A stretch of 64,000 bases of DNA from Escherichia coli (GTDB lineage: Bacteria > Pseudomonadota > Gammaproteobacteria > Enterobacterales > Enterobacteriaceae), in assembly GCF_024502345.1 (NCBI RefSeq), contig NZ_JALDNN010000002.1. One strand, written 5' to 3'. Positions 42,101-47,560 of the stretch are shown here, in pieces. Position 1 is the first letter of the stretch, and each line of letters opens with the position of its first letter. The position numbers are program-made.

Positions 42101-45100
42101 GTGTTATCTGTGGATTGTGCAGCTCAGCGGGTCGCTGGTCGTATGGCGGAGTGTCCCCCGTAACCGGCCGCGTGCGGCCGCTAACGCGCAGTACGGCGCC
42201 GCGTCCCGCAGGCGGGCCGCCGTTCCCGCGCGCAGCACTGCGCACCCCCGTGGGGGACGTGCGGCAGCTGCGTGGCGGTGACCGGCACGAACCGCATGTT
42301 AGGTCGAGTGACGGCTTCACAAATAGCTTCAGCGTCTGCAGCATCATGCTTATTGGTTTTAACATAGGGTTTGACGAACTGAGGGGCCATCAGTTTGACA
42401 TTATGGCCCATCGATATCAGTTTATTGGCCCAGAAATGAGCAGATGCACAGGCCTCCATGCCGATCAAACAGGGTGGGATGTTGGCAAAAAAGGAGGCCA
42501 TTTGTGCCCGTCTGAGTTGTTTGTTGAACAACCGTTTTCCGTGCTCGTCAACCCCATGGATCTGGAAAACGTTTTTTGCCAAATCGATTCCAATAGTTTT
42601 AACGTTCATGATAGCAGCGCTCCGTTCAATGAGTGACGATTTATCGTCCCACTGTGGCACAAGAGATGGGAGGCGACCATTCCATTAACAAAGCCGGTAT
42701 TTAGCCGTTGATGCGTCAATACCGTAGGTAAATTTAGCAACTAGAAACCATACCATTATTGGCGGCAAAGTAATTGCAAATAAAAATGCTAAGCCTCTTT
42801 CTCTATCGTCCATTTCAGCGCTCCTTTTTTGGTTCCCAGACTTTATAGCCGTTACGTTCAACCTCTGCTTTTGCCGCTTTGGTTTTACCCGGTTCTGCTA
42901 TCGAACGTAGGAGGATCAGCGTTTCAATAGCGAGTGATTCATGCAACATCATCTGTCCTGCCGGTGGGAATGTTACGCCAGATAGCGTTTCGGTTATTGC
43001 CTTCAGCTCATCGCGCAGTGAGCCAAAATCCGCATCTGAAGCACGGTCAAAAAGGTAATCCAGTTTGCGATTTACGTCGCTCAGCTGGTTGGTAACTATT
43101 TTCAACCCGGACTCCAGATCACCTGGGCCAGCTTCAAGGCAGCGCCGCAGATACTCTGACCGATTACCACCTGAAACCAGGTCTATATAGGCCAAAAGTT
43201 CATCTGATACTTTTGCGGTTATTGTTGGCATTCAGTCCTCACTTTGTGCATTTTTTAAACGAAAAAAGGGTGTCTAATACGGTGAAATCATAGTATTACC
43301 AAAGTAATAAATAAAAAATTCTTTAAATCAGTAAGTTAGATTAGATTTGTAATACCTGGGTAATACCGCAGTATGGCTAAATTTGGTTTTTTTCTTTTAA
43401 ATCAGTGAGATAGCGTGATTTATCACGCTGCGTTAGGTGTATAGCAGGTTAAGGGATAAAAAATCATCTTTTTTTGGTAGGGCGATCTCCGTAGGTTAAG
43501 GGTCATTTGGCTAAAAAGCGTCCTATTCTTTGATGGTCATGCTTGCATGACCATCTGAGCAACCAAAAACTACAGATAAACTACAGATAAACTACAAAAA
43601 ACGTTTTGCCTTAGTGTTGGGAGACTACAAATAGACTACAATAAAACTACAAATAAACTACAAATAAACTACAAAAAACGTGACAGACTACAAATAGACT
43701 ACAATAAAACTACAGATAAACTACAAAACTCGATTGACCCCTTCTTACGAGTGTTGTAGAGTCATTTTCATACAACGGAGGGGGTTATGAATAAACCAGC
43801 AGATCTGAAACCCCGCAACTTATCGGCTGCTGTCAGATTGCGCCTAAATGAAATCGAGAACTGGCTGGACAGAGGGCTAACGCGGCATGAAATTGCTGAA
43901 ATCCTCGACAGCGAATACAGCTTTTCGGTAACAGCCAAAGGGCTTGAGATGGCACTGTATAGAACGCGGCAAAACCGAAAAAATGTATTGCACAATACAC
44001 ATGATAAGAGTAGCGCGAAGGGTGCAGCGGAAAGTGTATTGCACAATACACAACCGTCTGAGCCTGAAGCGCAGGAAAGTAAAAAAGCAGAGAGTCCCGG
44101 CATTATTGATAAAGAATTCTTCAAGAAAATCGGTGAGAATTTCGACCCTAAGAAGTTCAACAAAAAATTCTGAGGTGATTTATGAAAGTAGCGGTAATTA
44201 ATTACAGTGGCAGTGTTCGTAAAACCTTAATTTCATCTTACCTGTTAGCCCCGCGCCTGACTGGTGCAAAGTTCTATGCGGTAGAGACTATCAACCAGTC
44301 TGCTTCCGATCTGGGTATTGAAAATGTGACCAGTTTTAAAGGTGACGACTTCTCACGTTTGATTGAGGGGTAATGACTCCAACTTACTGGTAGTGTTTTA
44401 TGTTCAGATAATGTCCAATGACTTTGTCATGCAGTTCTCCCTTCAGGCGTGATTCATAAAGCGGCCAGTCATCCGTCATCCATACCACGACCTCAAAGGC
44501 CGACAGCAGGCCCGGAAGACGCTCCAGCGTGGCCAACGTGCGTTCACCGAATACGTGCGCCACAACCGTCCTCCGTATCCTGTCATACGCGTAAAACAAC
44601 CAGCGCTGGCGTGATTTAGCGCCGACGTAACCCCACTGTTCGTCTATTTCCGCGCAAACAATGACGTCACTGCCCGGTTGTATGCGTGAGTTTACCGACT
44701 GCGGCCTGAGAGGCGGTGTAAGTGAACTGTAGCTGCCATGTTTTACGGCAGTGAGAGCAGAGATAGCGCTGATGTCCGGCAGTACTTTTACCGTTACGCA
44801 CCACGCCTTCAGTAGCTGAGCAGGAGGGACAAGTGATGGAGATGGAAGCCACTGGAGCACCTCAAAACCACCATCATACACTAAATCAGCAAGTTGGTAG
44901 CATTACCCAGAACTGGACAGAATAGGCTGTATGTCTAACTTCTGGCCACAGATATAATCGAGCCAGCAGTGCTCGCCGCAGCCGAGCGACAGGGCGAAGC
45001 CCCGAGTGAGCGAGGAAGCACCATGGAACAGTACTCATAAATTCTGCATACGCTCAATGCCTGCAAAATCACCTCCCATAGGGGTTATCCACTTATCCAC

Positions 45101-47560
45101 GGGGATATTTTTATAAGATCTTTTTAAATAGTTGTTAGATTTTTATTTTTAGAATGCCCACAGGCCTTTATCCATGCGGGTTCCAGAGAGGGATCTGTGA
45201 CAAAACGCCCTTTCAGTGTGACAAATCACCCTCAAATAGCCGCCATTTCTGTGACAAGTTGCCCTTAACCCTGTGACAAATTGCCCTCAGGAAGCGTTGC
45301 TTTTCACAAAGTTATCCATCCCTGTTGACTCTGTTTTATGAAGTGTGACAATCTTAAAGTCTGTCACACTTCGCATGGACCTGTCATGGCGGAAATAGCG
45401 GTTATAAACCATAAAAAACGTAAAAATAGTGAATCGCCACGGATAATCTAGACACTTCCGAGCCGTTGATAATACTGGTTTTCATATTCTGTCGGTGACA
45501 TCTGTTCGCTAGAACCATGCCGACGCTTACTGTTATAAAACATTTCGATGTAATCAAAAATATCACTGCGGGCTTCTTCCCGCGTTCCGTAGATCTTTTT
45601 CTTTATCCGTTCACGTTTCAACAACTGGAAAAAACTTTCTGCAACCGCATTATCATGGCAGTTACCGCGACGGCTCATGCTACCCTCCAGGCCGTGTGAT
45701 TTCAGGAACGACTGCCACTCATGGCTTGTGTACTGACTGCCCTGATCCGAATGAACCAGCACCTGTTTTTCGGGATTACGCCGCCATACAGCCATCAGCA
45801 GTGCGTTCAGGACAATGTCCTTTGTCATCCGGGATTGCATGGACCAGCCGATAATTTTGCGTGAGAACAGATCAACAACAACGGCAAGATACAGCCAGCC
45901 TTCGTGGGTCCTGATGTAGGTTATGTCCGTTACCCAACGCTCATCAGGAGCATCCGGATTGAACTGTCGCTGGAGCCTGTTGGGTGACACGATACTGGCC
46001 TCGCCTTTACGTGCCCGCGGGCTTCGGTATCCGACCTGAGCCTTTATTCCGACACGTTTCATCAGTCTCCAGACTCTGTTTACTCCGCACTGTTGCCCGC
46101 TGTCACGCAGATCCAGATGGATTTTGCGATAACCATAGACGCATCCCGATTCCAGCCAGAACTGTTTAATCTGTCCTGTCAGTCTCAGGTCTGCCTGATG
46201 GCGTTGTGAATGCGGCTGCTGAAGCCAGGCGTAAAAACCACTGGGATGAACATCCAGCACCCGACAGAGCAGGCGAACAGGCCAGCAACAGGAGTTGTCA
46301 CGGATAAAGGCGTACCTCAGTCGGACAGCTTTGCGAAGTACGCCGCTGTAGATTCAATTGGTCAACGCAACAGTTATGTGAAAACATGGGGTTGCGGAGG
46401 TTTTTTGAATGAGACGAACATTTACAGCAGAGGAAAAAGCCTCTGTTTTTGAACTATGGAAGAACGGAACAGGCTTCAGTGAAATAGCGAATATCCTGGG
46501 TTCAAAACCCGGAACGATCTTCACTATGTTAAGGGATACTGGCGGCATAAAACCCCATGAGCGTAAGCGGGCTGTAGCTCACCTGACACTGTCTGAGCGC
46601 GAGGAGATACGAGCTGGTTTGTCAGCCAAAATGAGCATTCGTGCGATAGCTACTGCGCTGAATCGCAGTCCTTCGACGATCTCACGTGAAGTTCAGCGTA
46701 ATCGGGGCAGACGCTATTACAAAGCTGTTGATGCTAATAACCGAGCCAACAGAATGGCGAAAAGGCCAAAACCGTGCTTACTGGATCAAAATTTACCATT
46801 GCGAAAGCTTGTTCTGGAAAAGCTGGAGATGAAATGGTCTCCAGAGCAAATATCAGGATGGTTAAGGCGAACAAAACCACGTCAAAAAACGCTGCGAATA
46901 TCACCTGAGACAATTTATAAAACGCTGTACTTTCGTAGCCGTGAAGCGCTACACCACCTGAATATACAGCATCTGCGACGGTCGCATAGCCTTCGCCATG
47001 GCAGGCGTCATACCCGCAAAGGCGAAAGAGGTACGATTAACATAGTGAACGGAACACCAATTCACGAACGTTCCCGAAATATCGATAACAGACGCTCTCT
47101 GGGGCATTGGGAGGGCGATTTAGTCTCAGGTACAAAAAACTCTCATATAGCCACACTTGTAGACCGAAAATCACGTTATACGATCATCCTTAGACTCAGG
47201 GGCAAAGATTCTGTCTCAGTAAATCAGGCTCTTACCGACAAATTCCTGAGTTTACCGTCAGAACTCAGAAAATCACTGACATGGGACAGAGGAATGGAAC
47301 TGGCCAGACATCTAGAATTTACTGTCAGCACCGGCGTTAAAGTTTACTTCTGCGATCCTCAGAGTCCTTGGCAGCGGGGAACAAATGAGAACACAAATGG
47401 GCTAATTCGGCAGTACTTTCCTAAAAAGACATGTCTTGCCCAATATACTCAACATGAACTAGATCTGGTTGCTGCTCAGCTAAACAACAGACCGAGAAAG
47501 ACACTGAAGTTCAAAACACCGAAAGAGATAATTGAAAGGGGTGTTGCATTGACAGATTGA

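Follow-up and report, generated by a model that had tools for sequence, protein, structure and literature searches.

Organization of the locus

The 64,000-nucleotide stretch of Escherichia coli DNA analysed here (the window; NCBI RefSeq assembly GCF_024502345.1, contig NZ_JALDNN010000002.1) carries, at positions 44908-45429, the origin region ori2 of a RepFIA-type plasmid replicon together with the first 44 nucleotides of its initiator gene, repE, which at that point is joined to an insertion sequence (IS) of the IS3 family (Table 1). Every element of the ori2 of plasmid F is present in the same order, as is apparent from a three-way alignment of the window, F and the Klebsiella plasmid pK245. 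An earlier reading of the window made without database searches (hereafter, the sequence-only reading) held that the DnaA boxes, four iterons and the operator inverted repeat are intact, and all of these are indeed present at or near the positions it gave.

Table 1. Coordinates of the ori2-repE relic, the adjoining mobile elements and the other replication genes of the window
Feature	Position	Strand	Description
IncR repB, complete initiator	35485-36378	-	291/291 residues identical to RepB of pK245 (IncR reference); Pfam Rep3_N
Second dead replicon	41232-42080	+	C-terminal 100 codons of a Rep_3 gene (41232-41531), then iterons (41582-42080)
IS1 remnant	44384-44907	-	left boundary of the ori2 segment; InsA/InsB-like open reading frames; IS1-like matches end at 44908
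Conserved element of about 63 bp	44962-45026	+	AGCCAGCAGTGCTCGCCGCAGCCGAGCGACAGGGCGAAGCCC...GAGCGAGGAAGCACC, 5' of ori2; from alignment
Tandem DnaA boxes	45085-45101	+	TTATCCACT (45085) and TTATCCACG (45093), overlapping; same in F, pK245 and the window
AT-rich stretch of ori2	45102-45165	+	aligned with the AT-rich region of F ori2
Four 19-bp incB iterons	45196-45290	+	core TGTGACAA; starts at 45196, 45217, 45250 and 45272
repE promoter and operator	45325-45372	+	-35 box TTGACT at 45325; inverted repeat 45340-45372
Native 5' remnant of repE	45386-45429	+	44 nt, codons 1-14 and 2 nt of codon 15; identity to pK245 ends at 45429
Fusion open reading frame	45386-45451	+	21 codons, MAEIAVINHKKRKNSESPRII then stop: MAEIAVINHKKRKNS followed by ESPRII; ATG at 45386, stop at 45449-45451
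IS3-family remnant	45430-46346	-	917 bp of a 1,229-bp element, terminal repeat TGAATCGCCACGG... and orfB; cut by IS30
orfB	45448-46260	-	Pfam rve (1.4e-33), HTH_21, rve_2; NCBIfam transpos_IS3 (5e-101)
IS30, complete	46347-47567	+	1,221 bp; interrupts the IS3-family element at 46346/46347

The DnaA boxes and the AT-rich stretch match F ori2 column for column, as in a RepFIA origin, and further DnaA-box-like copies occur at 45168 and 45312. From what is known of F, the AT-rich stretch is presumed to be the unwinding region. A search for 19-mers resembling the F iteron consensus, with at most 3 mismatches, returned 3 matches, vs 0 expected by chance; iterons 2 and 4 are the same as those of F, iteron 1 differs by 2 bases and iteron 3 by 1, so that the four direct 19-bp incB repeats typical of RepFIA are all in place. 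The operator inverted repeat, with 16-nt arms that are 88% complementary, overlaps the repE promoter and contains AGTGTGACAA, the motif that it has in common with the iterons, again as in RepFIA.

An R27-type allele of the RepFIA origin

The relic segment is identical at 522 of 522 positions to the ori2/repE-5' region of pK245, a match far beyond chance. A 540-bp query (44908-45447) matched 3,094 PLSDB plasmids, 533 of them at no less than 99% identity; among the matches listed, the best are 100% identical over 44908-45429, each lying under an annotated repE. Compared with the RepFIA-like replicon of the IncHI1 plasmid R27, the relic is 99.2% identical over 509 bp, vs 85.0% over 474 bp for F ori2. 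Because near-identity to R27, rather than to F, defines the IncFIA(HI1) subtype, the relic belongs to the R27-type RepFIA-like replicons, known in typing schemes as IncFIA(HI1), a name that has been used for a plasmid carrying mcr-10 (PMC7067168). The sequence-only reading, which named the origin RepFIA ori2 and its iterons F-like, needs correction as to the allele, which is that of R27 and not that of F. The segment extends leftward to the IS1 junction at 44907/44908, which is also found in pK245, and the two sequences are collinear over a 2.35-kb block (43078-45429) that includes stbA and the IS1 remnant.

The repE junction and the IS3-family element

The break lies exactly at 45429/45430, where the match to pK245 ends with AAAAATAG and the IS sequence starts with TGAATCGCCACGGATAATCTAG.... 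The terminal repeat of the IS (TGAATCGCC...) begins 20 nt ahead of the stop codon of the fusion open reading frame and supplies the final six codons together with the stop. Accordingly, truncation of repE by an IS3-family element, as originally proposed, is borne out, but the native part of the gene amounts to 14 2/3 codons, not to about 20, and the stop codon, which had been placed ahead of the IS, lies inside the terminal repeat and is contributed by the IS itself.

The intact homolog, a RepE of 251 aa, comprises the domains Rep3_N and Rep3_C; its score with the NCBIfam RepE equivalog is 533 bits, and its identity to the RepE of F is 96%. The complete 251-aa Rep_3 initiator with its two domains, WH1 and WH2, that belongs to a RepFIA replicon is missing: apart from the 44 nt, the rest of repE is absent from the 64-kb window, where a tblastn search with the RepE of pK245 yields the 5' stub and, beyond that, no more than a distantly related Rep_3 fragment (41226-41495). 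The incC iteron set that should follow repE on its 3' side is missing as well, given that a regular-expression scan of both strands of the 64 kb detected no TGTGACAA(N3-5)CCCT site outside 45196-45290. Hence the locus is not a simple insertion: it has lost incC as well as the 3' 712 nt of repE.

The IS3-family remnant is 100% identical to complete copies in plasmids pKEC-39c and pCUPF09A, the latter from E. coli. The complete copy in pCUPF09A is 1,229 bp long (TGAATCGCCACGG...CCGTGGCGATTCA), is flanked by a 3-bp target duplication (GTT/GTT) and has the imperfect, inverted TG...CA termini of the IS3 family; the copy in the window is one-ended. The domains of orfB are those of an IS3 OrfAB transposase of the DDE (rve) type, and its 270-aa product is what this very common IS normally encodes (4,804 blocks). 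The IS30 junction truncates orfA some 86 nt past orfB, so that the 5' part of orfA is missing. Because the IS is itself cut by IS30 and the missing end is not flanked by repE, the loss of the rest of repE and of incC was probably caused by a later IS-mediated rearrangement. Two candidate traces of such an event failed. A second fragment of the IS (62666-62979, 96.5-97% identical), considered as the other end with repE attached, abuts IS26 and has an unrelated flank, and is a different copy of the IS3-family element. The betT/DUF2254 pair, which lies 3' of repE in a relative and could have marked a simple inversion, is in the window only 89.6% identical to that of the relative and has neither repE nor incC adjoining.

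The same IS is found in the FIA(HI1) replicon of pCUPF09A (NZ_CP182143.1, 9013-10241) as an independent insertion, located between iteron 4 and the -35 box of the repE promoter, with the GTT duplication and with repE intact. That one IS has entered the FIA(HI1) replicon twice, at sites no more than 117 bp apart, may hint at a target preference. In a single alignment, the IS end CCACGGATAATCTAG resembles the displaced repE sequence CCGCGGATTGTCCAG, which could hint at a targeted insertion.

The IS30 copy next to the relic (46347-47567) and a second one (51278-52498) are inverted relative to each other and 99.6% identical, with the similarity extending 14 bp past one IS30 end. Between them lie an IS3-family fragment, a truncated DUF7834 gene and a GmrSD-type (DUF262/DUF1524) restriction gene (48954-50984).

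Initiators in the window and its mosaic structure

The only complete initiator of the window is the IncR repB, and scans with the RepFIB RepA of F, the third Rep of pK245, the IncR RepB and an IncFII RepA1 detected no second one in the window. The product is identical to the IncR reference and the gene adjoins IncR origin components, namely, repeats of 21-22 bp (36413-36517) and a consensus DnaA box (36621), which identifies the replicon as IncR. It had been singled out as the sole complete initiator, which stands, and classified as RepFIB-type, which is valid for the protein family but not for the replicon type: identity to the RepFIB RepA of F is 47%, too distant for a replicon whose RepA should be close to those of F and P307. 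In the second dead replicon, the Rep_3 fragment is cut on its N-terminal side by IS1 and shares 61% of its residues with the third Rep of pK245; the iteron array that follows consists of 13.5 tandem copies of 37 bp that are 93% alike.

The window is a mosaic. The nearest relatives of its left part (1-27833) are two mcr-10 plasmids typed IncFIA+IncFII, pI9455333_MCR10 and pEC81-mcr10, at 99.9% identity; positions 32400-45429 represent a pK245-like IncR/IncFIA(HI1) backbone; and the sequence from 48484 onwards comes from other plasmids, of the E. coli type. The relic thus records the assembly of an mcr-10-bearing mosaic in which an IncR/IncFIA(HI1) backbone of the Klebsiella type is combined with an mcr-10 plasmid of the Enterobacter type.

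Probable recent inactivation of the replicon and the competing interpretations

We consider it very probable that the locus is a recently inactivated RepFIA replicon of the R27 type (IncFIA(HI1)), the initiator gene of which was cut by an IS3-family element, and thus a scar of plasmid mosaicism. The element is joined to repE after nucleotide 44, and the origin and the autoregulated promoter/operator survive unchanged. Judging from published work, ori2 would not be able to initiate on its own without RepE, in which case the IncR replicon, together with any replicon outside the window, would drive passive replication of the DNA. The identity of the relic to live alleles implies that the lesion is recent. 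Should a cognate RepE be present in the cell, it would be expected to bind the sites of the relic, resulting in incompatibility of the incB type or in a depressed copy number of FIA or FIA(HI1) plasmids; alternatively, the relic might be fired in trans by such a RepE.

The expected behavior of the iterons has a published basis. In the passage of PMC4853401 that cites Saul 1988, the E protein of R27 initiates from F ori2, R27 incB and incC bind the E protein of F, and this R27 region is said to account for the incompatibility between R27 and F. The FIA replicon is controlled by handcuffing between oriV and incC, and cloned FIA control regions displace F-like plasmids (PMC11983097). The notion that iterons lacking RepE could bind RepE and cause incompatibility fits these publications on F and R27 (PMC4853401, PMC11983097).

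Some considerations weigh against the inactivated-scar interpretation. A complete repE may lie outside the window, in which case the origin would not be functionally dead. The very recency of the lesion means that survival of the iterons is no evidence of selection. Finally, the exact junction occurs in no other record, whether in PLSDB and all complete E. coli genomes (searched with junction-spanning queries) or in the GTDB representatives and JGI metagenomes (searched for an exact 40-mer), so that the lesion is private and rests on this one assembly.

The iterons, described as orphan in the sequence-only reading, may not be such, since a plasmid related to the left part of the window has a complete repE. 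It is a realistic, if tentative, possibility that another, complete replicon of the FIA(HI1) type is present on the source plasmid beyond the limits of the window and that its RepE acts in trans on the relic ori2. In that case, the relic would serve as a spare origin or, on a cointegrate of two FIA(HI1)-bearing plasmids, as an additional incB set that lowers FIA-driven initiation by titration and handcuffing. The left 27.8 kb of the window match, at 99.9%, mcr-10 plasmids typed IncFIA+IncFII, and in one of these, pEC81-mcr10, a complete ori2-repE of the FIA(HI1) type is located about 15 kb outward of the position corresponding to the left edge of the window. The RepE of pEC81-mcr10 is identical to that of pK245 in 250 of 251 residues. 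The ori2 of this plasmid, at 95.5% identity to the relic, is a different allele, a difference that would suit a fusion of two plasmids each contributing an FIA(HI1) replicon. If the source keeps a pEC81-mcr10-like backbone, cognate RepE would be supplied in cis and the relic would be a second RepE-binding locus. However, mosaicism is high among these plasmids, the match of the window to the mcr-10 plasmids already ends at an IS26 (27834), and the 64 kb include no complete repE.

Another reading, which we regard as unlikely, makes the relic doubly functional. On a cointegrate with a live FIA(HI1) replicon outside the window, it would provide a second incB set that damps the live replicon or excludes incoming FIA(HI1) plasmids, and its repE promoter, less repressed without RepE in cis, would transcribe through the IS3-family remnant into the IS30 transposase gene and raise IS30 activity locally. 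The transposase gene is on the same strand as the repE promoter, and no terminator-like site was found on the + strand at 45380-47700.

It is improbable, in our assessment, that the iterons are more than a neutral scar and that selection maintains them for incompatibility with, or exclusion of, incoming FIA(HI1) plasmids. Such a role would be in line with the recurrence of orphan iteron sets in the backbone, namely, the IncN-type array at 41582-42080 and that of pKpn2146b (PMC4048246), and with the displacement of F-like plasmids by cloned FIA control regions (PMC11983097); yet the absence of the junction from other plasmids, E. coli genomes, GTDB representatives and JGI metagenome contigs gives no sign of spread or persistence, and recency fully explains the 100% identity to live alleles. 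That IS repeats (IS3-family, IS30, IS26, IS1) were mis-joined during assembly and repE is actually intact, running from 45429 into CCCGCGGATTGTCCAG, is highly improbable despite the uniqueness of the junction and the density of IS copies in the region (four of IS26, two of IS30, three of IS1 and four of ISKpn26), given that the joint coincides exactly with the TG terminus of the IS, as it would after genuine transposition, and that pCUPF09A has an independent insertion of the same IS 117 bp farther upstream, with a clean duplication of 3 bp.

Relationship to known replicons

Among the closest known systems is the RepFIA-like replicon of R27, as carried also by pK245-like IncR/IncFIA(HI1) plasmids of Klebsiella: from ori2 through the iterons and the promoter/operator to nucleotide 44 of repE, the window is 99.2% identical to R27 and 100% identical to pK245. 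The reference plasmids encode a 251-aa RepE, whereas in the window repE is lost after 14 2/3 codons and incC is missing. With the RepFIA of F (ori2/incB, repE, incC), the relic shares the architecture, the order of elements, iterons 2 and 4 and the tandem DnaA boxes; it differs in that the ori2 sequences are about 85% identical and that the repE body, incC and adjoining sopABC are lacking from the window.

Replicons inactivated by IS elements are well known in multi-replicon plasmids, and the relic, a known element with a common type of damage, is already known in kind. The FII/FIC replicon of F itself is dead through a transposon insertion (PMC11983097); in the F record, a Tn3-like element comes after repA2 and tap. 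As in the window, a mobile element has hit the initiator region, the control elements remain and other replicons sustain the plasmid (PMC11983097); unlike the relic, RepFIC/FII is controlled by antisense RNA rather than by iterons, and the inserted element is a different one. Plasmid pKpn2146b, an IncFIA+IncR plasmid, carries the IncN iterons of R46 without a rep gene, and its FIA replicon is described as complete (PMC4048246). Here, too, an iteron set was kept after IS-mediated loss of the initiator on an IncFIA+IncR mosaic, and the second dead replicon of the window (41232-42080) is a similar relic; the ori2 relic differs from that of pKpn2146b, where the iterons belong to another family (37 bp) and FIA is complete. 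Among the PLSDB records that match ori2-repE, 365 of 2,508 have coverage below 80%, which is due in part to divergence of F-type ori2 and in a few records (H185, H186) reflects clear repE fragments.

Practical implications

The significance of the relic is mostly practical, and it raises no new biological question. Relics of this kind can confuse replicon typing because the origin half of FIA(HI1) is present and the repE half is absent, so that sequence-based typing could yield a partial IncFIA(HI1) match for a replicon that is not autonomous. The classic FIA typing primers give a 462-bp product on F, against which they were checked; the site of the reverse primer is missing from the window.

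Other features of the window

The conserved element of about 63 bp is kept upstream of ori2 in the window, F and pEC81-mcr10, and an inverted copy lies beside the IncR origin at 36687-36754 (a 68-bp match, 95.6% identical). As a candidate structured priming signal in single-stranded DNA, it did not hold up, folding no better than shuffled sequences (z from -0.2 to +0.6).

Next to the IncR origin, in the region 36772-40367, genes for an umuDC-like translesion polymerase adjoin the ltrA reverse transcriptase/maturase gene of a group II intron (38880-40367), as in pK245. In the part shared with the mcr-10 plasmids, a xerC-type recombinase gene is followed by mcr-10 (20098-21717) within the region 18655-21717, the product being MCR-10.1 with the single residue change G486S, and a type 3 (mrk-like) fimbrial operon, mrkABCDF (8620-14159), which is 99.9% common to mcr-10 plasmids, is situated between IS110-family elements. 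To the right of the relic, the region 52519-58852 encompasses an hsdR-like type I restriction subunit gene abutting IS30, a gene for an SprT-like metalloprotease and copies of ISKpn26/IS5; a plasmid-borne gene for an OmpC-like porin occupies 57740-58852, and a scrK-like fructokinase gene starts near 63270.

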